A DNA stretch of 64,000 nucleotides from an uncultured virus (IMG/VR IMGVR_UViG_3300027751_000013) (taxonomy: Duplodnaviria > Heunggongvirae > Uroviricota > Caudoviricetes): IMG/VR virus record IMGVR_UViG_3300027751_000013; one strand, written 5' to 3'. Below, one piece after another: positions 6,556 to 56,561 of this stretch (positions are counted from its first letter, which is position 1; each line of letters starts with the position of its first letter). Under the pieces are notes generated by a model, which made no database searches, had not been told where the DNA came from, and was given only the letters and a program-made list of their open reading frames with translations. Position numbers and translations under genes: made by a program.

Positions 6556-6982
6556 AATTTGGTACAGTATTGAAAATAGAATGCCGTACGGGGAGGTAAA
6601 AGGAGTCGTACAGGTAACCAATTCTAATTCTTTCAAATTTATTAAGGAAATACAAGAAAGTATAGAAGCTTTCAATAGAGAAATAGAATGGGATCAAATG
6701 TGGGATTTAAAAGAAACCCAAAAACGGTTCTCTAATAATGAAGTTTTATTTTTACTTCGTGATAAAAAAGGAGCTTTAGGGCATGTATGGTTTGATGAAG
6801 ACTATCTTTATAATATGTTTGTTAGTGATAGAAGAGAAGCTGGGATGCCAGTAAAATTTATCCTACATTGCTTCAACTATACACCGTATAAAGAAATCAG
6901 ACTTTATTGTGATAAGTGGAACTATAGGGCACAGAAATTCTTTGAAAAAGTTGGAGCTAAAGAAATTTCTTCTTATCTTTAA
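6545..6982 (+). CDS. GNAT-family acetyltransferase
   Basis: LYNMFVSDRRE.G and WNYRAQKFFEKVG (motifs A and B). Confidence 0.7.
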   Translation: MEDKIWYSIENRMPYGEVKGVVQVTNSNSFKFIKEIQESIEAFNREIEWDQMWDLKETQKRFSNNEVLFLLRDKKGALGHVWFDEDYLYNMFVSDRREAGMPVKFILHCFNYTPYKEIRLYCDKWNYRAQKFFEKVGAKEISSYL

Positions 6983-6984
6983 GT

Positions 6985-7491
6985 ATGAATATAAATCTAC
7001 CCTATAGTCCGACTACTAGTCTAGAAGAATTAGAAGATCACCTAACTACTAACTACTTCAAAAAACCTTACGATAGGTTTATGTGGTGGAGAAGTTATAC
7101 GTTAAAGAATAAACCTCTTACTTCTAGACATCCATTTAAGGATAGAATACTTAACGGTGATTTCGATATAGGTTCGTTTAAGTATGAAGCCCAAGTTGTA
7201 GAACATAGAATGAACGACAAATGGAGAGAGCTTTATAGGGATACCGGAAGGTATGTAGAAGAGACTTCTTTAGATAGAGCTAGACGTAAAAGACTATTAG
7301 AAGACTTTGAAAAGGACGAAGCTAATAAACTTCAGGAACTTGAAAGAGGATTCTTACAGACGTTTAAACTTACTAAGGAACAGTACGAAGAAGAGGTAAT
7401 GAATACCGACTTAGAGCTAATAGAATTATACTTTTATATTGAAGAAAAATACGGGACATATTGGAAACCCGCTAAGATTCCTTTAAAATAG
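6985..7491 (+). CDS. Hypothetical protein
   Basis: 168-aa ORF behind promoter motif at 6949. Confidence 0.7.
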   Translation: MNINLPYSPTTSLEELEDHLTTNYFKKPYDRFMWWRSYTLKNKPLTSRHPFKDRILNGDFDIGSFKYEAQVVEHRMNDKWRELYRDTGRYVEETSLDRARRKRLLEDFEKDEANKLQELERGFLQTFKLTKEQYEEEVMNTDLELIELYFYIEEKYGTYWKPAKIPLK

Positions 7492-7521: not shown

Positions 7522-7824
7522 ATGAAAACAATTGGAATAATCCTTTTAATTTTAGTAGTAGTTGCCGGTGGTATTTTCGTAGCAACAAAATTCTTCAAAA
7601 AATTTAAAGACGAAGATAATGACGGTATTCCTGATGCTGTAGAGGATGCAGTAGAAGACGGGAAAGAAATCATTCAAGATGTTAAAGAAAGAGCAAAAAG
7701 AGTTAAAGAAGAACTCGGAGATGTTAAAGATGCAGCTAAAGAGGTAATCAATCAGGCTGGAGATGTAGTAGACGCTGCAAAGAAAAAACCAAGAAGAGGA
7801 AGAAAACCAAAACAAACCAAATAA
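7522..7824 (+). CDS. Membrane-anchored coiled-coil protein
   Basis: N-terminal TM helix, DEDNDGIPD motif, basic tail. Confidence 0.7.
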   Translation: MKTIGIILLILVVVAGGIFVATKFFKKFKDEDNDGIPDAVEDAVEDGKEIIQDVKERAKRVKEELGDVKDAAKEVINQAGDVVDAAKKKPRRGRKPKQTK

Positions 7825-7825
7825 T

Positions 7826-8050
7826 ATGAAATTTATTTTAATCGCCGTAGCTTTAGCAGCAGCAGCATTTTTTATTGCAAAGAAACTTAAAGCTAAAAAA
7901 GAAGAAGTAGTAGCGCCTGCTAAAAAGGTAACACCAAAAGCACCTACTAAAAAGAAAACTAACACTGTTAAACCAGCAGGAGGAGCATCTTTATCAGAAT
8001 CAAATTCTAATGGAGATTATTATAGAAAGCCACGTAAGGCAAAGAAATAA
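7826..8050 (+). CDS. Membrane-anchored Lys/Pro-rich protein
   Basis: Hydrophobic N-terminus followed by basic low-complexity region. Confidence 0.6.
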   Translation: MKFILIAVALAAAAFFIAKKLKAKKEEVVAPAKKVTPKAPTKKKTNTVKPAGGASLSESNSNGDYYRKPRKAKK

Positions 8051-8055
8051 TTAAT

Positions 8056-8283
8056 ATGCAACAAAATTTAAATGTCGACATCAATCAAACGACAGGGGTT
8101 ACATGTGACGAGTGCGGAAACGGATATTTCGAACAACAGCTCGTACTTAGAAAAGCATCAGGACTCCTTACAGGAACAGGTCAACCGGCCTACATCCCAA
8201 TACCCGTTTTCGCTTGTACAAAATGCGGATCCGTCAACGGAGAGTTCTTACCAAAGGAAATTAAAAGCCTCGATGGGAAATAA
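8056..8283 (+). CDS. Zinc-ribbon protein
   Basis: CDEC...CTKC. Confidence 0.75.
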   Translation: MQQNLNVDINQTTGVTCDECGNGYFEQQLVLRKASGLLTGTGQPAYIPIPVFACTKCGSVNGEFLPKEIKSLDGK

Positions 8284-8339
8284 TTACTCCGGATTACAGG
8301 AGGATATATACAATACGGAGGACGATCTCTAGTAATAGA

Positions 8340-8378
8340 TTTCGTTGTAGGAAGCGAGAGGGGGTGTAGGAACCCCCT
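8340..8378 (+). other. Tandem hairpins with identical GTAGGA loops
   Basis: TTTCGTT-GTAGGA-AGCGAGA then AGGGGGT-GTAGGA-ACCCCCT. Confidence 0.6.
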
Positions 8379-8426
8379 TCCGCGTACAAAAAAGACTATT
8401 TATATAAAAGGAATGTTACACTTAAA

Positions 8427-25903: not shown

Positions 25904-25963
25904 AGTTGCTAGATTAAATTATTATTCTTATATTTAGTATTATTAATTAACTAAAGGTTATAT

Positions 25964-26347
25964 ATGCAATTAGAAATGATTGAGTGCCCTAAATGCGGCA
26001 ACGACTTCCCATTAAAAAGAAAAGAGTTAGGTTACCATGTATGTGTTAACTGTTCGACAACTAAAGCAGTAGTAGGCGTTACTACAGTAGAAGGAAGTGG
26101 AGACCATACTTACAATGATCTTATTATTATGGATCAAGATCAATACCTTTCTATTAAAAGAAAAGAAGCTGAACTATCAGGTAAGAAATCAGACTTATTA
26201 GAAATTCTAGACTTAGACAGAGACGAAAACGAAGTAAGCCAATCAGTAAAAGAACAAGTCAACGTAATATTAGATGACGACTTGGAAGCAGAGGAAGACG
26301 AACAAGACGTTGACAGAACAGGTCAAATAGAAGGAATAGATTACTAG
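25964..26347 (+). CDS. C4 zinc-finger protein with acidic tail
   Basis: CPKC...R.ELG...CVNC. Confidence 0.75.
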   Translation: MQLEMIECPKCGNDFPLKRKELGYHVCVNCSTTKAVVGVTTVEGSGDHTYNDLIIMDQDQYLSIKRKEAELSGKKSDLLEILDLDRDENEVSQSVKEQVNVILDDDLEAEEDEQDVDRTGQIEGIDY

Positions 26348-29800: not shown

Positions 29801-30061
29801 ATGCCAATAAAAAAAGTATCAGTTACAAAGACATCACAGTATTATGTAGATGGGGAAGGTACAGTAGATAGAGATCGAATAGTTACTCTATCTCATGATT
29901 GGACTGAAAGAGACATAACCCTCTTTAAGAAACTAGCCAAACAAGGCGGTACCTGTAGACTTCAGGGGCTTAAGTATACAATCATACCAGGAGAAAAAAT
30001 AACAACATCCAAAGGATGGGCGGATGCTGGAGCAGCTCCAATGCCTGGACCAGAAAATTAA
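29801..30061 (+). CDS. Hypothetical protein (start revised)
   Basis: AAAGTTATG start at 29801. Confidence 0.6.
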   Translation: MPIKKVSVTKTSQYYVDGEGTVDRDRIVTLSHDWTERDITLFKKLAKQGGTCRLQGLKYTIIPGEKITTSKGWADAGAAPMPGPEN

Positions 30062-45986: not shown

Positions 45987-46050
45987 AAAAAGTTGCTAGA
46001 ACGATTATTTCTTCTTATATTTAGGTATAATAATTAAAACAAATATATCT

Positions 46051-46176
46051 ATGAAGTATCAAGCGATTTTAAAAAATGGAAAGAATGGAGAAAAATTATT
46101 TTCAACGCCAAAAAAAGCGGTTAAATTTTATCCCGGTCAAATTAAATTATTGAAAGAGATTTATATAGGGGGTTAA
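46051..46176 (+). CDS. Hypothetical 41-aa protein (not in track)
   Basis: MKYQAILKNG...IYIGG behind promoter at 45991. Confidence 0.55.
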   Translation: MKYQAILKNGKNGEKLFSTPKKAVKFYPGQIKLLKEIYIGG

Positions 46177-46211
46177 TAATAACCCCTTTTGGGGGTTAAA
46201 AAATAAAGGTT

Positions 46212-46766
46212 ATGTCCACATTAGAATTCTACCCTACACTTACTCCAATCGAAATGTTACAGGAAGGTATATTTGGAGGTTCATATTTCGGAGTAGAGAA
46301 GTTGCAAGGAGATCAAGATTACCTACCTCTCTTTGAAACGTTAGGAGATATAGATCCTGCTCTCTATTTAGGAAACAAATATAAACCTAAAGTAAATAAG
46401 TTCAAAGTACGTTCGGGAATGCCATATCAATATTGGGTAGATATGAAATGGATGCATGCAGATGATCCATATGGTTGGTTTGAATGGTACATTAAATACT
46501 TCAACGGACGTAGACATCCAGATGACAATAGACAGATTTCTAGATGGCAGGACTTTGCCGGAAGGAATGGAAGATGGAGAAACAATATCTATAAGAAGAT
46601 ATATGATACAGGAGATTGGAATGTATCTCCTCGTATTCAGCAATCATTATTACATTGGGGATATAAAGTTAATGAAGGAGATTATAACTTATGGTTAAAC
46701 TCTATTCATAAATCAGATGAATGGTGTCAGTATGGCGGAATGCCTTCACCAAAAGCTTATATGTAA
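46212..46766 (+). CDS. Conserved-looking hypothetical protein
   Basis: TP.EML..G.FGG.YF, DPYGWFEWY..GRR..DD.RQI.RW, RIQQSLLHWG. Confidence 0.75.
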   Translation: MSTLEFYPTLTPIEMLQEGIFGGSYFGVEKLQGDQDYLPLFETLGDIDPALYLGNKYKPKVNKFKVRSGMPYQYWVDMKWMHADDPYGWFEWYIKYFNGRRHPDDNRQISRWQDFAGRNGRWRNNIYKKIYDTGDWNVSPRIQQSLLHWGYKVNEGDYNLWLNSIHKSDEWCQYGGMPSPKAYM

Positions 46767-46839
46767 ACTTTTTTAAAATAAAGTTGGTCCGTATTGTTTT
46801 TCTTCTTATATTAAGGTATAGAAATTAAAAATAAAGGTT

Positions 46840-47058
46840 ATGACAAATCCATTACATTACTTCACATTTTCATTCAAAGACAAATCAACCAAAGAGTATG
46901 TTGGTTGGAATACTACAGTTGCTACAACAGAAGAGGAAGCAATTGTAAAAGCACAGCAGCAATGGGATACAGCTGAGAGTACTTACTATATCGATACAGC
47001 ATCTTTTATTCAGCAAACGGATGAAGAAATGGTAGAGATGGTAAACTTTGCACTATAA
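46840..47058 (+). CDS. Early hypothetical protein
   Basis: Own promoter cassette. Confidence 0.75.
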   Translation: MTNPLHYFTFSFKDKSTKEYVGWNTTVATTEEEAIVKAQQQWDTAESTYYIDTASFIQQTDEEMVEMVNFAL

Positions 47059-47105
47059 GTAGTTGATTATTTAATTTATTCTTCGTATATTTAGGTATAG
47101 AAATT

Positions 47106-47173
47106 AAGAAATAAGTATTGCTTGCGGTTGGCAAAGCATGGATAAAGGCAGATAAGCCCATGCACTTATTCTT
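47106..47173 (+). ncRNA. Putative structured leader (three-way junction)
   Basis: AATAAGT/ACTTATT closing stem with TTGC/GCAA and GCATG/CATGC arms. Confidence 0.45.
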
Positions 47174-47191
47174 TTTTAAAAAATAAATGTT

Positions 47192-47575
47192 ATGCAAAAT
47201 TACATTACAGTTTACGATTCATTAGACGCACCAGACACTTCTGGTTCAAGTTTAAAAGGACATTTAGGTTACGGCATTACTTACGGTATGTTAATTGAGT
47301 ATTTAGGATTACCAACTTACCTTCCGGAAGATTCAGGAGACGGTAAAGTAAACTTTCAATGGGTAATAGAATTTGAAACTGCTAATGGAGGAACAAAAGT
47401 ATTCTATATTTACGATTGGAAAACTGAATCTCCAGAATGGTCAAGACTGAATACTGGAACTAAAGAACAAGCTTCAGAATGGTTTGGAGGTTCAAGATGG
47501 CATGTAGGAGGTAAAACTTATGCTGGAGACTTTATCGATTTTATCGAAAAAGAAATTAAGGAATTAGTTGCCTAA
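47192..47575 (+). CDS. Early hypothetical protein
   Basis: GSSLKG...GDGKV..W...IYDWK...WHVGG. Confidence 0.75.
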   Translation: MQNYITVYDSLDAPDTSGSSLKGHLGYGITYGMLIEYLGLPTYLPEDSGDGKVNFQWVIEFETANGGTKVFYIYDWKTESPEWSRLNTGTKEQASEWFGGSRWHVGGKTYAGDFIDFIEKEIKELVA

Positions 47576-47621
47576 TAGAAATATTCTTCTTATATTAAGG
47601 TATAATTAAAAAATAAAGGTT

Positions 47622-47972
47622 ATGTTAAAAAATGTATTAGTAGTATTAGGATTAACAGTTTTAGCTTCATGTAATAGCGGGTTAAAGGTAGAAGATGAAT
47701 ATGGTTTTAATGAGAAAGATAAAACATATTTAATAAACGAACTTAAAAGACTCGTAATAGAAGATGTTGAATCAGAAACCGATTTAATATTTACTGAAAT
47801 CTCCATTCAGCCTACTTATGGTAAAATGAAAGATGATGGTAGATTTATTGTTAATGGAAGTATATTCTATTCAATAGGTCCGTCAAATTATTTACAACCA
47901 TTTATTGGTGAAGTGGACGGAACTATCCATTTAGCAGGTGCTGCTGTTAATGCAGACTTTTTTAAAAAATAG
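47622..47972 (+). CDS. Lipoprotein
   Basis: Lipobox LASC; own promoter. Confidence 0.75.
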   Translation: MLKNVLVVLGLTVLASCNSGLKVEDEYGFNEKDKTYLINELKRLVIEDVESETDLIFTEISIQPTYGKMKDDGRFIVNGSIFYSIGPSNYLQPFIGEVDGTIHLAGAAVNADFFKK

Positions 47973-48028
47973 TTGTCTAATAGAAATATTCTTCTTATAT
48001 TAAGGTATAATTAAAAAGGTAAAAGGTT

Positions 48029-48823
48029 ATGACACGTACAGAAATTTTAAAGATTAGATTAGACGAGCTTAGTAATGAAAATACCAAGCTTGATGCTAGA
48101 GTAAGAAACTTGTATATTAGAAGACAGAAAGAACTTATTAATGTCTTAAGAGACTGGTTTATTCCTTTCAATATAGAAGATCAAGATGTTACTTTCAACT
48201 TTACTGAGTATAGAGTTGAGGTATTGAAAAAACAAAAAGAAGAAAATAAGGCCATCTTCTGGTTTAAATTGAGAGAAGAGTGGAACGATAAAACTACTTT
48301 TACTGGATTTGAACTAAATAGTTATTATGGAGGAGCGATAATTAGCGATGATACTGTTACAACAATGATATTAACTGCTAAATGGAGTCAGTTTGTATTA
48401 GATTATCAAGATGATATTATTGCCGAACTTAATATGGTTCAAGAGAGATATGAAAAGTATATAACTATACTAAGAGATAAACAATATGAGTTGAAAAAGT
48501 CTATCAATCAACAGCAATCAGATATTAATGAGTTGAGAAAAGAAGAGATCTTATCTAAACTAACTACTGAAGGAATAGAGTTAGATACAAATAAGAAAGA
48601 GAATAAGGATTCATATCTTCCATCTTTAGAAGTAAAGTTTGATTGGACTTTAAGATCAGTTAAAGCGTTAAAAGTTTTGAGAATGACTACTTCTAAAAAG
48701 TCAGCTGATGTTGAAGTTACAACAAGAGATTGGCAAGGAGGTTTACACAAAACAATAGTAGAAAGAGTCAGAATGGATAATATTTTAGGCTTTGTAAGAT
48801 ACAATGAGGATATAATAATTTAA
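48029..48823 (+). CDS. Early coiled-coil hypothetical protein
   Basis: 264 aa; own promoter. Confidence 0.75.
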   Translation: MTRTEILKIRLDELSNENTKLDARVRNLYIRRQKELINVLRDWFIPFNIEDQDVTFNFTEYRVEVLKKQKEENKAIFWFKLREEWNDKTTFTGFELNSYYGGAIISDDTVTTMILTAKWSQFVLDYQDDIIAELNMVQERYEKYITILRDKQYELKKSINQQQSDINELRKEEILSKLTTEGIELDTNKKENKDSYLPSLEVKFDWTLRSVKALKVLRMTTSKKSADVEVTTRDWQGGLHKTIVERVRMDNILGFVRYNEDIII

Positions 48824-48826
48824 GTT

Positions 48827-49093
48827 ATGGTAGAAATATTTCCAGCATATAGAAAAGCAATTAAAGTTATAGAATCTAGTGAAACATTACAACATTTGGA
48901 AGGTGCTAGAAAGTTTATTAATAACTTCTTCAGAGCTTATTCAATTCCTTACGAAGTCAGAAAAAGAAAGTTTGGTTGGGAGAACTTAAATAGTGAAACA
49001 AAAGTTGAAATAAGACAGCCTAATACGCTAGCAGCACATATGTATGAAGAACTGTTAATCATACTTGAAACAAAAGAAGCTAAATTTCAATGA
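48827..49093 (+). CDS. Hypothetical protein
   Basis: 88-aa ORF. Confidence 0.65.
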   Translation: MVEIFPAYRKAIKVIESSETLQHLEGARKFINNFFRAYSIPYEVRKRKFGWENLNSETKVEIRQPNTLAAHMYEELLIILETKEAKFQ

Positions 49094-49212
49094 GGGCACT
49101 AGCAAGACCAACCAGACTAAAATTATCACACAATCCTACTTCTCTACTGATTGTTTCAATACAGAAGAAGTTAAGAAGAGAGAAGAGGAAGAAAGCTTAT
49201 AGGATGTCATAA
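49090..49212 (+). CDS. Basic 40-aa ORF (not in track)
   Basis: MRALARPTRLKLSHNPTSLLIVSIQKKLRREKRKKAYRMS; ATGA overlap with previous gene. Confidence 0.4.
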   Translation: MRALARPTRLKLSHNPTSLLIVSIQKKLRREKRKKAYRMS

Positions 49213-49279
49213 CCCCTATATTATGTTTTTAATTATTATTAGAAGAGCCGGTAGACGTCATAACCCTACCGGTTTTTTT
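49198..49279 (+). ncRNA. Twin hairpins with loop AYGTCATAACC; the second is an intrinsic terminator
   Basis: TATAGG-ATGTCATAACC-CCTATA and GCCGGTAG-ACGTCATAACC-CTACCGGT-TTTTTT. Confidence 0.65.
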
Positions 49280-49359
49280 ATTGAAAATAATTAACAAAAG
49301 AGTAGGTTCGTATTGTTATTCTTCTTATATTAAGGTATAGAAATTAAAAGATAAAGGTT

Positions 49360-49662
49360 ATGACAATTACAGCAATTAAAAAAGAAAACTTCAAAGCAGT
49401 TAAAGACTTATTAATCAAGAAGTACAACGCTTACAACATCGAAAATGAAGGTAACTACTTTCATATGTTTATCGATTTTGAAGATGAAACTCTACAATGT
49501 GAATTAACAAGAGATTGTTCATTCGGAAGCTGGGATGCAACTAAACTTTCAGGTGAGGGATGGACACAAGAAGAGATAGCTAAACAAGCAGCTGCTGAAA
49601 GATTAGAAAATGAAGTTTATGCTGATATGAAAAAAATAACTAAAGAAATAGTTTCTAGTTAG
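49360..49662 (+). CDS. Early hypothetical protein
   Basis: Own promoter cassette. Confidence 0.75.
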   Translation: MTITAIKKENFKAVKDLLIKKYNAYNIENEGNYFHMFIDFEDETLQCELTRDCSFGSWDATKLSGEGWTQEEIAKQAAAERLENEVYADMKKITKEIVSS

Positions 49663-49685
49663 AAATATTATTCTTATATTTAGGT

Positions 49686-49810
49686 ATAATAGTTGGGGTA
49701 AGTATATCGGTATGGAGCAAGTCCGATGTTAAAGAGTCCCTAGAGAGTAATTGGCTGAAATCATCCTAACCCTACCAGAAGTTAGGTTTCAACTCACTAC
49801 CCAACATTAT
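49686..49810 (+). ncRNA. Putative ~125-nt structured RNA or leader
   Basis: Closing stem ATAAT.GTTGG.GTA/TACCCAACATTAT; arms ATCGG/CCGAT and TGAAA..CCTAAC/GTTAGGTTTCA. Confidence 0.55.
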
Positions 49811-49838
49811 ACTTTTTTAAACTAAACAAATAAAGGTT

Positions 49839-49961
49839 ATGATTGAAACAAGAGAACTACTTAGAGAAGAATTAAGATTACTACTTGACGGTACAAACAA
49901 TGTAGCGGAGACAGTAGAAGAGATCATCGCACACATCAGATGGAGAGAAGATAATTTATAA
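49839..49961 (+). CDS. Hypothetical 40-aa protein (not in track)
   Basis: AAAGGTTATG start; MIETRELLREELRLLL... Confidence 0.65.
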   Translation: MIETRELLREELRLLLDGTNNVAETVEEIIAHIRWREDNL

Positions 49962-49981
49962 TTCTAAAACAAATAAAAGTT

Positions 49982-50212
49982 ATGGCAACAGGATACAATT
50001 CAGTAATTAAGATCGAATGTATAAAAGGTTTCATTCCGGAAGGAGGAGATCTAGTAATAATGAAAGGAGATAGATTCTATCAATCTTCAGACTTCAGCGA
50101 TGATTGGATTGGAGAGGTAGATGGAAGAATGGAAGGAATGATTATATCTTTCTACACAGAACAACTAGCAAATAACTTTCAATTTGTAGGTAGAAAAATC
50201 TCCTTATATTAG
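49982..50212 (+). CDS. Hypothetical protein, SH3-like
   Basis: F..E.GDL....GD...DW..GEV.GR.G. Confidence 0.55.
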   Translation: MATGYNSVIKIECIKGFIPEGGDLVIMKGDRFYQSSDFSDDWIGEVDGRMEGMIISFYTEQLANNFQFVGRKISLY

Positions 50213-50268
50213 TAGGTTCGTATTGATATTCTTCTTATATTAAGGTATAGAAATTAAAAATAAAGGTT

Positions 50269-50775
50269 ATGACAATTCAAAACGTATTATCATTAGAGAA
50301 TTTAGTAGATGTTCAAGCGGTATTATCTGCAGCAACAAGAAGGGTAATTGAGTTAAAAAATAACTTACCATCCTTTCCGGAAGTTAAAAAGCAGGCTGTT
50401 ACTTTGAAGAAAGAGTTCAGAGCTTTAGTAAACGACGATTCTAAATACTATAATGACGATTTGACTGGCCGTGTTGAGATGATGAAGAATGAAGACGGGT
50501 CTAGATATTATGAAGGTTCGTTTAAAGTTATACCTTCAACAGGTCAAGAAGGAGTATATGATGAGGATTTTGGTTCACTTGCCGGACAGCCTAGATATGG
50601 ATACAAATTTCAACTTGATTCTCCAGACCAGACATTAGAGATTGTTAATAAAGTATTACCAAAAGGATGGACTACAGAAGTTAAAATCGATAAGGGCTTA
50701 GTTCATGAAGGTGACGATTTAGTACCTTATTCTTCTTATTTAGTAAGTGTAAAATCTCCAAACTTTTTTAAGTAA
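50269..50775 (+). CDS. Early hypothetical protein
   Basis: Own promoter cassette. Confidence 0.75.
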   Translation: MTIQNVLSLENLVDVQAVLSAATRRVIELKNNLPSFPEVKKQAVTLKKEFRALVNDDSKYYNDDLTGRVEMMKNEDGSRYYEGSFKVIPSTGQEGVYDEDFGSLAGQPRYGYKFQLDSPDQTLEIVNKVLPKGWTTEVKIDKGLVHEGDDLVPYSSYLVSVKSPNFFK

Positions 50776-50835
50776 ATAGTTGTTTCGTATTGATATTCTT
50801 CTTATATTAAGGTATAATTAAAAACAATAAGAGTT

Positions 50836-51348
50836 ATGGCAAATTATTTATCAGTAAACAAAAAGTATTCATCGTTTAATTCTCAACTTGCTCAGTCAGA
50901 AAAGAATGACTGCTTTGTAAGAGCGTTAGCTGTTGCAGGTGAAACAGATTATCAAACAGCTCATCAAATAGCTAAAGATGTATTTGGAAGAAGAGAGAAG
51001 AAAGGAACTTTAGGTTATATGATTCACTCTGCATTCTTAAAAGCAGAAGCTGCAGGAATGATGTTAGGAGGTAAAAAGCTTGAGGTAGCGGTATTAGGTA
51101 GAAGAGATACCAAAAATAGATATAAGGTTAAAGGAGAAGTAATTTGGAGACAAAAGACTCTAAAAAGCTTTATCGAATCTCATCCAGTAGGAAATTATAT
51201 CGTTACAGTTGCCGGACATGCATTAGCAGTAATAGATGGAGAGTTAGCAGATTGGTCTAAAGAAGGATTCAAACCTACTCGTAAAGTTCAAGCAGCTTAT
51301 AGAGTTCATCCTCAACAAATAGCATCTCAATTAAGTCTATTTGAATAG
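50836..51348 (+). CDS. Early protein, possible Cys/His peptidase-like, with C-terminal QLSLF
   Basis: NDCFVRALA...GHALAVIDG...D; ends SQLSLFE. Confidence 0.65.
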   Translation: MANYLSVNKKYSSFNSQLAQSEKNDCFVRALAVAGETDYQTAHQIAKDVFGRREKKGTLGYMIHSAFLKAEAAGMMLGGKKLEVAVLGRRDTKNRYKVKGEVIWRQKTLKSFIESHPVGNYIVTVAGHALAVIDGELADWSKEGFKPTRKVQAAYRVHPQQIASQLSLFE

Positions 51349-51427
51349 GAAAATAAATGGGGAAAGGGTTGCTAGATCGATCCTTTCTTCTTATATTTAG
51401 GTATAATAATTAAAACAAATCATTTTT

Positions 51428-51646
51428 ATGTTCTACCAAATTAAAAACACCTCAAAATTAAAATTTAATTTAATTGCTGTGAATTCAAAAAGCAAAATCT
51501 TTAACGCTATAAAAGAAGCTGGTTGGGTTGCATCTGAATGCAAAATAATTGCAATGGATGATTCATTAAAAAATACATTCACAAATATTAAAACTGGCAA
51601 TCGCAATAAAAAAGGACGCCAATTTGCAATGAGAGCGGGGGTTTAA
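51428..51646 (+). CDS. Early hypothetical protein
   Basis: Own promoter cassette. Confidence 0.65.
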   Translation: MFYQIKNTSKLKFNLIAVNSKSKIFNAIKEAGWVASECKIIAMDDSLKNTFTNIKTGNRNKKGRQFAMRAGV

Positions 51647-51719
51647 AAAACCTCAAATAGTAGTAGGTTTGTATTAATATTCTTCTTATATTAAGGTATA
51701 GAAATTAAAAATAGAGGTT

Positions 51720-51911
51720 ATGAGAGATTCAATCGCATTTAGTTCAAAGCATTTAAACCATGAGCGTATTGCTCAAGAGATCTTCGAAACATTCAACATT
51801 CGAGAGATAGGATTTGGTATCGTTAGATTTAAACTCAATCAGATGGGAATTACTGATGTAGAAGACATAAAAAAAGTTACGGATTTAGTTATGAAAAAGT
51901 TGGACGTCTGA
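51720..51911 (+). CDS. Early hypothetical protein
   Basis: Own promoter cassette. Confidence 0.7.
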   Translation: MRDSIAFSSKHLNHERIAQEIFETFNIREIGFGIVRFKLNQMGITDVEDIKKVTDLVMKKLDV

Positions 51912-51955
51912 GTTATTCTTCGTAAATTAAGGTATAGAAATTAAAAATAAAGGTT

Positions 51956-52276
51956 ATGACGATTCAAGATCAAGCAAAGCAATTAAAGAACGACGTTAAG
52001 CAATTTATTAATGGAGGATATGTTTGGATGCACAAAAGAAAGGCTGCCAAATGGACAGGTGGAGGAGAGTATTATGTAGTTGCTTTCCAAACATTAGAGA
52101 AGGAGAACAAAGAAGAGGACTTAATTACTCTACAATCATTAATACTTCCAGAAGGTTGGGTTGCATATTGGACAGGTTTCAGAATTGAACTTTATAAGAG
52201 AATAGGAGAAGGAGATTTACAGTTGGATGATATACAATATAAACATTTTACATTAGAATTCGAAAAATTACAATAA
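51956..52276 (+). CDS. Early hypothetical protein
   Basis: Own promoter cassette. Confidence 0.7.
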   Translation: MTIQDQAKQLKNDVKQFINGGYVWMHKRKAAKWTGGGEYYVVAFQTLEKENKEEDLITLQSLILPEGWVAYWTGFRIELYKRIGEGDLQLDDIQYKHFTLEFEKLQ

Positions 52277-52292
52277 GAGTAGAAAGGGGAAT

Positions 52293-52336
52293 GGCGTTTT
52301 TCTCTCCCCGACGAAGTCGCCACGCGCATTTTTAAC
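52293..52336 (+). repeat. GC-rich structured element, copy 2
   Basis: GGCGTTTTTCTCTCCC-CGAC-GAA-GTCG-CCACGCGCATTTTTAAC. Confidence 0.85.
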
Positions 52337-52413
52337 GAAACTTTTCTTTAAATAAAGTTGGTTCGTATTAGATTTCTTCTTATATTAAGGTATAGAAATT
52401 AAAAATAAAGGTT

Positions 52414-52668
52414 ATGACTTATTACACAGCATTAGTTTTAGTTGAAAGAAAGAACGCTTTTACAAACCGTATAAATAAGGTTAAAGAAAAATACGTAGTA
52501 GAAGCTAAATACGATTCAGAAGTAGAATCAAAAGTACTTTCTTATTTTGAAAATGGTGGAGGGGTATGGAACACGACAATGAAAGATGGTTCGGTAGTTA
52601 ATGTATCAGGTAATGTTCTTAGTGTTTTAAGTATTACTCGCACTACAGTTGAAGGAGTAATAGTATAA
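52414..52668 (+). CDS. Early hypothetical protein
   Basis: Own promoter cassette. Confidence 0.7.
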   Translation: MTYYTALVLVERKNAFTNRINKVKEKYVVEAKYDSEVESKVLSYFENGGGVWNTTMKDGSVVNVSGNVLSVLSITRTTVEGVIV

Positions 52669-52683
52669 ATTAAAATAAAGGTT

Positions 52684-52959
52684 ATGAGTAAATTTAAAAC
52701 ATTCGAAGACATTACTTGGAAAGCACACCAACTTGGAAAAGGTGCAATTCAAGGATTATTAATGCTAGATAATGGCATAGAATTATCTATTGTAGCAGGA
52801 CAGGGGATGTATAGCACACCCCGTGAAGATTTAGGTTCACCCGATTTACACTCATCATTTGAAGTTGCAATATTTGATAAAAAGGGTGATATGGTTGATG
52901 ATGTGTTAGGGTGGCAATCGAGAGAGGATATAAATAACTTAATTCAAATACATTCCTAA
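52684..52959 (+). CDS. Hypothetical protein
   Basis: NG..LSIV...FEVAI...DDVLGW. Confidence 0.7.
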   Translation: MSKFKTFEDITWKAHQLGKGAIQGLLMLDNGIELSIVAGQGMYSTPREDLGSPDLHSSFEVAIFDKKGDMVDDVLGWQSREDINNLIQIHS

Positions 52960-52981
52960 AGTATAATACAAAATAAAGGTC

Positions 52982-53167
52982 ATGCCAAAGAAGAAATTAG
53001 CATTAGATTCAGAATCACATTTACATTTATTAACTCATTTGTTTGATATCGAAGCGATGATTGAACCGGGTGAAGATATAATGCTTGATAGAGCATTAGA
53101 GAAACTAATTGAAGAGGTTAGGTTTTCGGATATAATTGTCTCATATAAACTAATGAAAGATGAGTAG
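52982..53167 (+). CDS. Hypothetical protein
   Basis: AAAGGTCATG start. Confidence 0.65.
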   Translation: MPKKKLALDSESHLHLLTHLFDIEAMIEPGEDIMLDRALEKLIEEVRFSDIIVSYKLMKDE

Positions 53168-53259
53168 AAGTTATTGGGGATGTGAAATGGAATCTCCTAT
53201 CTATCGAGAGGTAGCAGAAGAGATGAGGTTGAAGAAGGAACCATATAGTCTTCAGAGTA

Positions 53260-53517
53260 ATGAAAAGACTAAGAGAGGTAAGAAGAGTAATAAAGTCTAA
53301 CATTAATAAAACGTTTATGAAAGAAGGTAGTTACGAAGAAGTAAAGTATGGAGATGAGACATTTAAAATAGATAAGTCGACAGGTAAGATTGAGACGAAC
53401 TATACAATGAAGAACTCTCAAGGAAGGACAATAAAGCAAGAAGAGGATAGTGCTAAGATAATAGGCATTGCTATAATAGCTTTGATTGTATTAGGAATCG
53501 TTTTAGTATTTGTATAA
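53260..53517 (+). CDS. Hypothetical protein with C-terminal TM
   Basis: Hydrophobic C-terminus; start uncertain. Confidence 0.55.
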   Translation: MKRLREVRRVIKSNINKTFMKEGSYEEVKYGDETFKIDKSTGKIETNYTMKNSQGRTIKQEEDSAKIIGIAIIALIVLGIVLVFV

Positions 53518-53593
53518 GATGGATGATGAAAGGATTTACAAAGCGATAGAAGATTCTATTTTAGAGGAGTGGAAGAGGACGGAGTTGGAGTGA

Positions 53594-53639
53594 GGGGGCG
53601 CTTTCCTCTCTCGACAACGAAGTTGTCACGCGCATATTT
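53594..53639 (+). repeat. GC-rich structured element, copy 3
   Basis: GGGGGCGCTTTCCTCTCTC-GACAAC-GAA-GTTGTC-ACGCGCATATTT. Confidence 0.85.
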
Positions 53640-53881
53640 CACGAAAGGTCCTACCATCCTTCCTTACATTCTACAATAAGGACAAATATGTGATAACAAG
53701 CAAAGCTTGTCTCTGAGGTAGTTAGTGATTTGGGTGAACACTTCATATTAAACCCTAACGAACCTATAAGAGAGATAAGGATACATATGGTAGATAGAGG
53801 GTAAATGGCTTATTTCTACTTAAGTATAGAACATATTGTAAGTGTATAGATAATACCTAATGGAGACAACGCTATATGGGG

Positions 53882-53950
53882 TTAAAGACATCTAAAGATT
53901 ATCTATAGAAACCTAAAGACAACTAAAGAAGAACTAAAGATTCTATATAG
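53882..53950. repeat. Helically phased CTAAAGA heptamer array
   Basis: Units at 53882, 53892, 53903, 53913, 53923, 53934. Confidence 0.75.
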
Positions 53951-54129
53951 ATCAATAGGAATAGAGTGTGTAGAATAATGAAGGCTTGTGAATGGAATGA
54001 GATATATAAAGTACAGGCGTGTGCCTCCCTCCCTTCCCTTTTCAAAATTCTATAGAAAATATATGGTCAAATAGTTGCCGGCCTGCCATATTCTTCTTAT
54101 ATTAAGGTATAATTAAAAAGATAAAGGTT

Positions 54130-54483
54130 ATGACTTATTCAGAGAGAGTAAAAGCAGCTAAGACAATCATCAACGCAGTTAAGGTATTAAAGGACAAAGA
54201 GTACATCGTTGTAACTTATGGTACAGATTACAATAACGTACCTCAGGAGTATAGGATTTCTTGCAGCATATACAAAGAGGGTAAGCCTTCTTATAGCATT
54301 TACCGTAATGAGGTATGGGCTTTAGGTGGTATGAACATAGAGTCATTTACCAATACATTGGCTAAGGCTTATACTTACGATATGATGAGACAGAGAACTG
54401 CTTATAACTTTCCATTGTGTGAGATGGTATTAGTAGAAGAGCCTTTTAAAGAACAAGTTAATACTAGTGAGTGGGGTATCTAA
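54130..54483 (+). CDS. Early hypothetical protein
   Basis: Own promoter cassette. Confidence 0.7.
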   Translation: MTYSERVKAAKTIINAVKVLKDKEYIVVTYGTDYNNVPQEYRISCSIYKEGKPSYSIYRNEVWALGGMNIESFTNTLAKAYTYDMMRQRTAYNFPLCEMVLVEEPFKEQVNTSEWGI

Positions 54484-54507
54484 AGAGAATCTAAAGAGAG
54501 TCTATAG

Positions 54508-54768
54508 ATGAAAGAAAGAATAACTATACAAATAGATAGAGAGGTAGCTGAGACCATAAAGGAGTTATATCCAGATATGTCTTATACAGTAGCTCTAAGG
54601 CTATTACTTGATACATCTAAAGAGAGTCTAAAGAAAGTCTATAGACCTCCTACCATACATACGCCTACTACAGACAATATGGCTAGTCTAGATGATATAA
54701 AGGAATTAAAGGATAAGTTCTCTTCTGTACTGGACAACCTAATCAAAAAGAATAAGTTAAAGGTATAA
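54508..54768 (+). CDS. Ribbon-helix-helix DNA-binding protein with C-terminal coil
   Basis: RITIQIDREVAETIKEL...SYTVALRLLL. Confidence 0.6.
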   Translation: MKERITIQIDREVAETIKELYPDMSYTVALRLLLDTSKESLKKVYRPPTIHTPTTDNMASLDDIKELKDKFSSVLDNLIKKNKLKV

Positions 54769-54939
54769 GAGAGATTCCGGAAATTAGTAGGGTAGGTTTA
54801 TATCACCTTGATGGCACCTTGCTATAACACTGCCAGTATAGTTCCCTAAGAGGTTGGGCATCGGCTCGGCTGCGCCATACCTGGTTTCATATTTCTGATG
54901 ATTTTTCACTATATAGGGTTATATATATTTATATATTGT

Positions 54940-55365
54940 TTATATAATAGAGATTGTAGAACCAAATACCGTCAAAGATATACGTGTACCTTGTTGTATC
55001 TTAGGAAGTCTATGTAGAGTAGTAGAACTAAACACTCCTTCCTCCATCTCAAAGCCATTTACTACTAATTTAGTATTACATTCAGAGGGTTTTAACTCGC
55101 ATACATACGCCCATTTACGCCTAAAGTTATTATCCATATGTTCGTTAAAGAAGTCTCCTTCCTTCCATGTGTGTATATGGTAGGTATCGTATTCAGTTGA
55201 TATATCAATACCTTCAAATGAGTATATATGTTCTTTTAATTCCTTATGGAAGGGTACTTTACTGTAATGTGTATTAGTATACTTATAACTTCTATCTGGC
55301 CGATTATATGATTCTTGGTCGATATTTCTATTTCGTATAAACCAGTCTTTATATTCTTGTTTCAT
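54940..55365 (-). CDS. 2OG-Fe(II) oxygenase (only convincing minus-strand gene)
   Basis: FFNEHMD, LHRLPKIQQGTRISL. Confidence 0.85.
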   Translation of the reverse strand: MKQEYKDWFIRNRNIDQESYNRPDRSYKYTNTHYSKVPFHKELKEHIYSFEGIDISTEYDTYHIHTWKEGDFFNEHMDNNFRRKWAYVCELKPSECNTKLVVNGFEMEEGVFSSTTLHRLPKIQQGTRISLTVFGSTISII

Positions 55366-55430
55366 TATGTCAAAGACCTATTGTGTTACTATATATGTTG
55401 ATCCCTCTATGGGTACGGTTTCTCTATAAT

Positions 55431-55463
55431 ATAAGATACGATTTCTCTCTCTACTTTCCAACT
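55431..55463 (-). promoter_or_regulatory. Minus-strand copy of the early promoter
   Basis: Reverse complement reads AGTTG-N20-TATCTTAT upstream of 55365. Confidence 0.7.
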
Positions 55464-55556
55464 GTTTTCACAAAATACTTGGGGAAATTTTTTGGCAAAA
55501 TTTTTCGGTATATAGGGGGTGTCTTCTTATATTGATAATATACGAACTATTTATCG

Positions 55557-55988
55557 ATGATGAAACAAATAGATAAAGATACATTATTCTCAATCTTCGA
55601 ACAAGGAGATGAAGAAGTATACATGGAGCATGGAGTTAAAGATGTTCTAGACAATCCTTTTGTTTTAATGGGAATGATACTTAGAGGTTTAGAGAACTTT
55701 GAACTAATGGATATGATGTATAAAAGAAACTATCCAGAAGAATATGAGAATGTAAAGAACCTTATAAAATACAAATACTACAATAAGTTATATAGATACC
55801 TTACAAAAATAGACAGTAGGTGTTTTAAAGATGAGTATACAATAGGAGAGGCTTTTGATAGTGAGAATGTATATAAGGCTTTAGATGACCTAAGAGTATA
55901 CTATGAAGTTATAGAGGAATACGAAAAATGTTCGGTTATAAAGAATTTTAGAGAACTTTTAATAGATAAAGTTGTTACTTTAAAATAG
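55557..55988 (+). CDS. Hypothetical protein with UVR-like C-terminus
   Basis: YYE.IEEYEKC..IK. Confidence 0.65.
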   Translation: MMKQIDKDTLFSIFEQGDEEVYMEHGVKDVLDNPFVLMGMILRGLENFELMDMMYKRNYPEEYENVKNLIKYKYYNKLYRYLTKIDSRCFKDEYTIGEAFDSENVYKALDDLRVYYEVIEEYEKCSVIKNFRELLIDKVVTLK

Positions 55989-56030
55989 TTTTCTTATCTT
56001 TATGTATAGAAACAAAATAAAGGTTATATT

Positions 56031-56561
56031 ATGTCAAAAACTCAAGAGGGATTCAAAGTCACTAAGATATCCCCAGATCAAGCTTCTGAGCTTATTGCTT
56101 GCAATGATGACCAATTAGGTACCCCTGCAGCACACTTTACATTAACACCTTCCACTAATAGTAATTACCCGGCCTCTGAAGGATGGGAAGATGTTAGGTA
56201 CTACACCAACCGACCCAGGCATATACAAATGCCAAAAGGTATTACTAACTGTCAATGGATATACATCCTCTCTAATGAAACGATGCCCGGTCTTGTTAAG
56301 ATTGGCTTTACAAAGAATAAACCTTCGGAGAGAGTTAAGCAGATCAATGCTGCGACAGGAGTCGCATTAGACTTCTCGGTCGAATGGGCTTACCCTTGCT
56401 TTAACGCACATGATCTTGAAAAAGAGATACATATCTACCTTGAGAATCAAGGCTTCCGAGTAAATAAAAAGAAGGAATTCTTTAATATTACGATTGAACA
56501 GGCAAGATCTGTTATCGAACGTATAGGAGAACCTTATAGGATGGAAGTATTCCAAGACTAA
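56031..56561 (+). CDS. T5orf172/GIY-YIG domain protein
   Basis: WIYILSN..MPGLVKIGFT, LEKEIH, KEFF. Confidence 0.9.
   Translation: MSKTQEGFKVTKISPDQASELIACNDDQLGTPAAHFTLTPSTNSNYPASEGWEDVRYYTNRPRHIQMPKGITNCQWIYILSNETMPGLVKIGFTKNKPSERVKQINAATGVALDFSVEWAYPCFNAHDLEKEIHIYLENQGFRVNKKKEFFNITIEQARSVIERIGEPYRMEVFQD

Follow-up and report, generated by a model that had tools for sequence, protein, structure and literature searches.

Organization of the hairpin locus

The stretch of DNA analyzed here (the window, 64,000 nt) belongs to a 94,822-base virus record (IMG/VR IMGVR_UViG_3300027751_000013; G000). All long open reading frames (ORFs) are located on the plus strand, the G+C content is ~33%, and G000 encodes GroEL as well as baseplate proteins. 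Among cultured phages, the nearest relative is vB_FspM_immuto, which infects Flavobacterium (67.5% GroEL identity). The host of the present, marine phage is Bacteroidota-like, presumably of the Flavobacteriia type. A phage bS21 was not found in G000, a weak negative result given that CheckV rates this record as 58% complete. Two metagenome contigs, L296 (133,918 bases) and L298 (115,688 bases), are identical to the window over the hairpin region. Both are longer than the record and the phage genome is therefore probably larger.

The locus comprises a transcription unit of three ORFs, encoding proteins of 264, 88, and 40 aa, which is closed by two hairpins (Table 1). The TAA stop codon of the 40-aa ORF (49210-49212) falls inside the loop of hairpin 1. 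The next cassette and gene follow 80 nt after this unit. Seven gene starts in the region, among them those of the 264-aa gene and of the gene that follows the hairpins, are each part of a repeated promoter-leader cassette, which consists of AGTTG, ~20 nt, TTCTTATATTAAGGTATA, an A-rich leader and then ATAAAGGTTATG. The cassette core is found in 13 copies in the window, all on the plus strand, between 31917 and 54100. From their arrangement, we infer that the cassette-driven genes are early genes. Pfam assigns no family to the 10 neighboring proteins and reveals no RNA-binding domain among them, and Rfam gives no match at E ≤ 1 in window region 46000-56000, C4 antisense RNA included. Just 5' of several cassettes there are AAACTTTTTTAAA-type blocks of a T-tract and an A-tract without a hairpin. 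They resemble upstream promoter elements rather than terminators, which leaves few true intrinsic terminators among these genes.

Table 1. Positions of the features discussed in the text (window coordinates).
Feature	Position	Strand	Description
Possible third anti-start hairpin	29907-29926	+	AAAGAG-ACATAACC-CTCTTT; inside 86-aa ORF 29801-30061
Transcription unit closed by the hairpins	48029-49212	+	Three ORFs
264-aa gene	48029-48823	+	Start GGTTATGACAC; first gene of the unit
88-aa ORF	48827-49093	+	Absent from G001
40-aa ORF	49090-49212	+	Absent from G001
Insertion relative to G001	48824-49220		88-aa ORF, 40-aa ORF and hairpin 1
Hairpin 1	49198-49220	+	Stem TATAGG/CCTATA, 6 bp, 2 G-C pairs
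Hairpin 1 loop	49204-49214		ATGTCATAACC, 11 nt
Spacer between hairpins	49221-49247	+	A/U-rich, 27 nt; TTTTTAATTATTATTA kept in G001
Hairpin 2	49248-49272	+	Stem CCGGTAG/CTACCGG, 7 bp, 4 G-C pairs
Hairpin 2 loop	49255-49265		ACGTCATAACC, 11 nt
U-tract	49273-49279	+	Seven T, directly 3' of hairpin 2; kept in G001
Cassette and start of next gene	49300-49364	+	AGTAGGTT..TTCTTCTTATATTAAGGTATAG..ATAAAGGTTATGAC; ATG 49360
Candidate target, 72-aa gene start	46836-46844	+	GGTTATGAC; ATG 46840
Candidate target, 264-aa gene start	48025-48033	+	GGTTATGAC; same transcription unit as the hairpins
Candidate target, 168-aa gene start	50265-50273	+	GGTTATGAC; ATG 50269
Candidate target, 106-aa gene start	51952-51960	+	GGTTATGACG; best loop 2 match, predicted -15.9 kcal/mol
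Candidate target, 84-aa gene start	52410-52418	+	GGTTATGAC; ATG 52414
Candidate target, 117-aa gene start	54126-54134	+	GGTTATGAC; ATG 54130
Start motif, examples	46832-46842, 25955-25966, 56022-56033
AAACTTTTTTAAA-type blocks	46790-46800, 47980-47992, 50785-50797, 52365-52377		T-tract/A-tract, no hairpin

Two hairpins with the same loop

The stems of hairpins 1 and 2 are unrelated and both loops read A(T/C)GTCATAACC. The closing G-C pair is common to both hairpins as well (G-AYGTCATAACC-C, with one Y difference). The second loop begins 51 nt after the first (49255 versus 49204). An earlier note on this DNA had described two hairpins with unrelated stems and the same 11-nt loop, which the sequence confirms in every detail. 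The 92-nt RNA spanning 49192-49283 is predicted to adopt these two hairpins and no other structure, at -23.2 kcal/mol (z = -4.06); none of 200 shuffled sequences folds as stably.

Hairpin 2 shows the features of an intrinsic terminator: a G+C-containing stem, which can be extended into the flanks via A-U and G-U pairs, a directly following run of seven T, the same orientation as the unit and a position after its last ORF. Hairpin 1 would be a weak terminator, having a short stem with few G-C pairs and a T-rich tail (TTATGTTTTT). Terminator loops are usually short (3-8 nt), whereas both loops count 11 nt. This length is also atypical for the genome, as loop lengths of 4-7 nt are seen in the four strongest terminator-like hairpins elsewhere in it. 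The sequence upstream of 49198 shows no promoter from which a separate small RNA could start, and processing must thus be assumed for such an RNA.

RNA-library contigs of run X15 cover most of the region 47994-49900; these data are assembled contigs that carry no information on ends, strand or abundance. One of the X15 contigs joins 49239 to 49272, thereby missing the 5' arm, the loop and most of the 3' arm of hairpin 2. The joint is absent from the two DNA runs compared. It may stem from skipping of the stable hairpin by reverse transcriptase or from a deletion variant, and shows neither transcription nor an RNA end.

Complementarity between the loops and gene starts

The complement of the loops, GGTTATGAC, occurs nine times in the window, with seven copies on the plus strand and two on the minus strand. 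The two minus-strand copies are the two hairpin loops, with the word centered in the loop in both cases, and all seven plus-strand copies head genes, at the same seven ATGs that the earlier note had named. The expected number is 0.33 for both strands together, the largest count in 100 shuffles is two, and the whole 94,822-base record contains the same nine copies and no others. The shorter word GGTTATG is found 28 times (5.86 expected). Eighteen of its 23 plus-strand copies are ORF starts, seven with GAC and 11 others, the latter matching the earlier estimate of at least 11 more genes that start with GGUUAUG. The antisense word CATAACC is located in the loop of a perfect hairpin (stem ≥6 bp) in three of its six plus-strand occurrences in the genome, compared to a background of 1.2% for any 7-mer position, which corresponds to a chance of ~3.5e-5 for this pre-stated word. 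The complementarity between loops and starts is exact and non-random, far beyond chance.

Both loops are predicted to be unpaired, with an opening cost of ~0.3 kcal/mol, and the predicted opening costs of the start regions amount to 0.9-4.5 kcal/mol. In the computed RNA-RNA interactions that the earlier note had suggested as a check, both loops indeed pair with all seven perfect start regions over 9-11 nt of perfect match (predicted -13.6 to -15.9 kcal/mol), while the 11 GGTTATG sites yield -8.5 to -14.2 kcal/mol. By these predicted energies the loops would offer an accessible seed, as a trans-acting small RNA derived from a 3' end needs, and the modeled duplexes are within the range of working small-RNA seeds. 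In the minimum free energy fold of a read-through RNA, loop 1 pairs with the start region of the gene at 49360. Action in cis is thus predicted to be energetically as feasible as action in trans.

The start motif in related phages

The start motif AAAGGTTAT(G) is situated 0-5 nt before the ATG and usually overlaps with it as AAAGGTTATG. The promoter 18-mer is found in at least 130 IMG/VR stretches (loci L002-L131), and the promoter cassette is also present in the genome of the cultured phage vB_FspM_immuto. We take this cassette to resemble the Bacteroidota -33/-7 promoter type. Among the promoter matches listed, GGTTATG is present within 45 nt in 68 out of 107 distinct downstream sequences, and its distance from the promoter takes 16 different values between 6 and 23 nt; GGTTATGAC is found in 26 of the 107, and another word, AAGGTTAT, followed by a few bases and then ATG, in six. 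A variable spacing between promoter and motif is also seen within G000. Since the spacing varies, AAAGGTTAT is a start-region signal of its own and not a by-product of the promoter repeat.

The word AAGGTTATG has a strong strand bias in all 12 related records in which it was counted, the cultured Flavobacterium phage included. It occurs 9-15 times on one strand and 0-1 times on the other in G000, G001, and G005-G009, and the counts for gene strand and other strand are 13/0 in G014, 8/0 in G011, 8/1 in G012, 2/0 in G013, and 8/0 in the cultured phage. A host-wide origin of the motif is not supported: two Flavobacteriales metagenome-assembled genomes (MAGs), which are not known hosts, contain 13 copies of AAAGGTTATG each versus 16 and 17 copies of the reversed control. 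In this small sample, the absence of an excess makes the motif look phage-specific.

Ribosomes of Bacteroidia work without Shine-Dalgarno (SD) pairing (PMC6847099; PMC7797042, PMC9976891), and initiation in F. johnsoniae is favored by adenines at -3, -6, -12, and -13 (PMC6847099). In the phage motif, three of these positions (-6, -12, and -13) are A, whereas -3 is G, against this host rule. The GG of AAAGG lies 2 nt from the ATG, in contrast to the ~5-9 nt of an SD spacing. The earlier remark that AAAGG is too close to the ATG for an SD function therefore holds, and the host type does not use SD pairing in any case (PMC6847099). It had further been proposed that a regulatory RNA explains why GGTT-ATG is conserved. 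This part is not borne out: the hairpins cannot explain the conservation of the motif, because the motif is clade-wide but the simple hairpin loops were found only in the G000/G001 lineage and in none of five other related records scanned in full. If anything, the hairpins exploit the start motif. A literature search on the motif, the hairpins and phage small RNAs returned no description of the motif or the hairpins, and the text matches to AAAGGTTATG, among those listed, are unrelated primers only. Independent of the hairpins, many Flavobacteria phages share a strand-specific start motif, AAAGGTTAT(G), that is coupled to a common promoter and departs from the known host rule of A at -3.

Conservation of the hairpins

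Orthologous proteins of the relative G001 (IMG/VR contig L139) and of G000 are 78% identical, and 67-74% of the four-fold sites agree. Hairpin 2 is retained in G001 with an identical loop and a CCGGAAG/CTTCCGG stem versus CCGGTAG/CTACCGG in G000. One stem pair has thus undergone a compensatory change from T-A to A-T, which G001 shares with the short metagenome contig L295 and which represents a single event. Together with the stem and the seven T, this change bears out the earlier proposal that the second hairpin is the terminator, and by its sequence features hairpin 2 is a conserved Rho-independent (intrinsic) terminator.

G001 encodes neither hairpin 1 nor the 88-aa and 40-aa ORFs. Instead, its 264-aa gene is directly followed by TACC, the conserved spacer and hairpin 2. 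As hairpin 1 is missing together with the two ORFs, it arrived with an inserted module. The same loop on unrelated stems, one of them inserted, implies that the loop was kept or acquired twice. In L295, hairpin 1 is present and hairpin 2 has the stem seen in G001. The conservation on which the earlier note made its idea depend is therefore divided: the loop of hairpin 2 is identical in G001 and L295, but the twin design is not maintained. Conservation between G000 and G001 extends over the entire 65-nt terminator region (TTTTTAATT to GAAAATAA) and thus does not mark out the loop in particular. Throughout the three haplotypes (G000, G001, L295), the loop is invariant and the start targets equally so. 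Co-variation of loop and start is consequently uninformative, because neither of them varies where both exist.

A flank pattern that does not depend on the loop retrieved five stretches from metagenomes, three of which are identical to the window, one being G001 and one being new (L295). Protein-based locus searches with the 100-aa gene, and with the 264-aa gene in metagenomes, yielded no further relatives. Among the 131 promoter loci listed, CATAACC is found on the promoter strand only at the G001 locus. In 24 related records searched by pattern (20 of them for GTCATAACC, the other five, counting W01, for TCATAACC), the dominant orientation of the word is that of gene starts. Antisense copies were located in the 18 records that were pattern-scanned only and, among the copies read in context, which are part of the total, a non-coding hairpin loop is found only in G001. 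CATAACC is in perfect-hairpin loops in three out of six cases in G000 and in the single case in G001, compared to none out of 19 in five further relatives whose records were scanned completely (649 kb). All five share the start motif and two are rated 100% complete; their loops contain no excess of anti-start 7-mers over control words. The idea that such loops are widespread in the clade was rejected on these two results.

Of the 14 IMG/VR stretches with AGACGTCATAACCCT, only L139 (the G001 contig) is related, the other 13 being unrelated contigs with 38-65% G+C and no hairpin. GATGTCATAACCCC matches at least 117 stretches, and the promoter cassette is present in none of those listed. Two loci with 7-8 flanking pairs, L233 and L277, were taken as chance finds, as these are unrelated contigs (43-55% G+C) without the start motif.

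A putative anti-start function of the loops

Our preferred, though tentative, reading is that the loops belong to an anti-start RNA, which would work in trans, as a fragment of the 3' end, or in cis. Hairpin 2 would be the Rho-independent terminator of an early unit in a Flavobacteriia-type phage, and the large loops of both hairpins would serve as seeds that pair with the start regions of small, cassette-driven genes of the same phage, from -4 to +5/+7 (GGUUAUGAC[A/G]). Pairing across the AUG in vivo would then block binding of the 30S subunit and repress translation. The active form would most likely be a stable, nuclease-resistant 3'-end fragment of the operon mRNA that works in trans, and the outcome a class-wide negative feedback on, or shut-off of, early translation. 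Alternatively, the loops could act in cis on the operon's own first gene (48029), or on the gene at 49360 in read-through transcripts.

Two properties argue for a function of the loop as such: its length of 11 nt, which comes at a cost to a terminator, and its presentation on two unrelated stems. Several observations count against it. The simple-hairpin feature is restricted to the one lineage of G000, G001, and L295, and hairpin 1 is not conserved within it. In addition, a single RNA made from one out of 13 or more cassette promoters would need to persist longer than 7-18 target mRNAs or exceed them in number, and a helix of 9-10 bp within a closed 11-nt loop would be sterically strained, which the energy model ignores.

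The next reading in rank, a serious rival although we regard it as somewhat unlikely, holds that both hairpins are plain transcription terminators and that the match between loops and starts is a historical by-product without regulatory role. Hairpin 2 would simply end the early operon, and hairpin 1 would be a weak terminator that travels with its ORF module. All terminator hallmarks of hairpin 2 and its compensatory stem change agree with this reading, as does the T-rich tail 3' of hairpin 1. The absence of the loop feature from fully scanned related phages with the same start motif points in the same direction, just as the conservation of the entire intergenic region does. However, a specific 9-mer would fall into a terminator loop by chance with a probability of ~1e-3 to 1e-4, and here this happens twice, on unrelated stems. 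Moreover, loops of this size weaken a terminator, those of the genome's others being shorter, and no mechanism is known that copies an inverted start motif into loops.

That the loops are ligands for a protein or the ribosome, as a mimic of the initiator-tRNA anticodon arm or as an operator for a phage RNA-binding protein, is improbable. Both hairpins contain TCATAACCC, and the anticodon arm of an initiator-type tRNA gene in the related record G007 (locus L286) reads CTCATAACCC, presumably the conserved anticodon loop and stem of initiator tRNAs. This likeness, however, follows automatically from complementarity to the AUG context and is limited to a linear 9-nt identity (TCATAACCC) with the L286 tRNA. 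The loops are 11 nt long instead of 7, the stems (TATAGG and CCGGTAG) are not the G-C-rich stem of an anticodon arm, and G replaces C before UCAUAA. In the corresponding match in a small ORF of relatives (see below), the additional bases follow the start motif (CCTT, the complement of AAGG) and not the tRNA (CCC). Identical loops on different stems would be typical of protein operators, but no RNA-binding domain is found in the 10 neighboring proteins.

Finally, it is very improbable that the loops mark the starts of tiny minus-strand genes or inverted sites at the DNA level (an origin or a protein-binding site): on the minus strand both do read GGTTATGAC(R)TC, which would open Met-Thr-Ser peptides of 10 and ~24 codons, and the relative G005 has a minus-strand gene with the start motif, but all 13 cassettes and all long ORFs are on the plus strand. 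Between G000 and G001, the peptides are conserved neither in length nor in sequence. The ATAAAGG consensus is missing from the upstream context (TAGGG/AGGGG), and the exact placement in the loops of stable hairpins suggests that the word is displayed single-stranded on the strand that is transcribed.

Should loops and starts indeed pair, a phage would have, in one short RNA, a compact means of timing or limiting an entire class of its genes, in a phylum without SD initiation and with very few known RNA regulators. The full picture would be that a clade of Flavobacteriia phages from marine and freshwater habitats marks its cassette-driven genes with a phage-specific, non-SD signal, AAAGGUUAU(G), and that in one lineage the terminator loops of an early operon have become duplicated anti-start seeds, which pair across the AUG and silence this gene class. 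We consider this combination as a whole rather unlikely. In other lineages, a hairpin within a small ORF may present this seed.

Comparison with known regulatory systems

The small RNAs CpxQ, SroC, and DapZ are examples of RNAs derived from 3'-UTRs. In bacteria, small RNAs of this kind can be embedded in the terminator (PMC7821165). Like these, the candidate comprises an mRNA 3' end with an intrinsic terminator, a short seed and targets in start regions. In contrast, the seed here would be in the terminator loop itself and duplicated, the RNA is predicted from the sequence, the phage's genes with one shared start motif would be targeted as an entire class, and the host type is without SD pairing. 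To our knowledge, this host type lacks Hfq.

In the icaR mRNA of Staphylococcus aureus, a 3'-UTR motif pairs with the mRNA's own ribosome-binding region (PMC3868564). Similarly, the first gene of the operon (48029) carries the motif that is complemented by its own 3' loops. The target in icaR is the SD, whereas here it would be the AUG with its context. As the motif is common to many mRNAs, cis specificity is not evident.

The c4 antisense RNA has a two-loop a'/b' design and is processed by RNase P. In phages P1 and P7, this RNA blocks downstream genes of the same operon (PMC8198154). In both cases, a phage RNA located in the operon of its target would expose short complementary stretches on a folded RNA. 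The two differ since Rfam gives no match, the loops are identical and they match many genes; c4 belongs to an immunity region, while the context here is formed by putative early genes of a Bacteroidota-type phage.

Phage T4 shuts off early genes class-wide through a shared feature of their start regions, by means of the repressor protein RegA and the nuclease RegB. The analogy is functional, i.e. a class-wide shut-off of early genes. Duplicated anti-start seeds, if true, would be the RNA counterpart of these proteins in a host without SD recognition. Regulation by small RNAs does exist in this SD-less phylum, as the Bacteroides RNAs GibS and MasB illustrate (PMC7366714, PMC10994844). Both are chromosomal, unlike the phage hairpins.

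Additional elements

A possible third anti-start hairpin lies far upstream in the window (Table 1). Its loop is complementary to the GGTTATGT starts of the genes at 46212, 47622, and 56685. Taken alone, it has a chance of ~5%, and only identical copies were found among relatives.

In G006, G007, G009, and others, the sole antisense copy of AAGGTTATG is contained in a small conserved ORF with the consensus MIE.IKH.LG.CGEHWHPNVITL... The element is complementary over up to 13 nt to the starts of those phages (AAGGTTATGACGT) and is placed in the apical loop of a predicted hairpin with 16 consensus pairs, three of which have double changes.

The corresponding family of small phage proteins (MIE.IKH.LG.CGEHWHPN...) has 268 relatives in IMG/VR, of which 80 loci were kept and 79 members read. 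One subfamily (L300-L306 and L316 with NVIT; L336 and L359 with NFIT) has a hairpin in the coding sequence with an apical loop (G/T)TCATAACC(TT), the complement of the start motif. Across five distinct NVIT sequences, the codons GTC ATA ACC TTG are invariant and neighboring synonymous sites vary. In most of the 79 members, NIWT or NIFT is found at this place, encoded by different codons, and the stem is missing. Because the constraint on the protein confounds the invariance of the codons, we treat this hairpin as a lead and not as support. A divergent homologue of the family is encoded in G000 outside the window (genome positions ~6853-6990).

G000 carries seven tRNA genes (Thr, Leu, Ser, Asp, Ala, Glu, and Gln; genome positions 7803-8386), with no tRNA-Met among them. 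The tRNA gene of G007 (L286, C1:69970-70200) has a CAT anticodon and a GGG/CCC anticodon stem, and is initiator-like.
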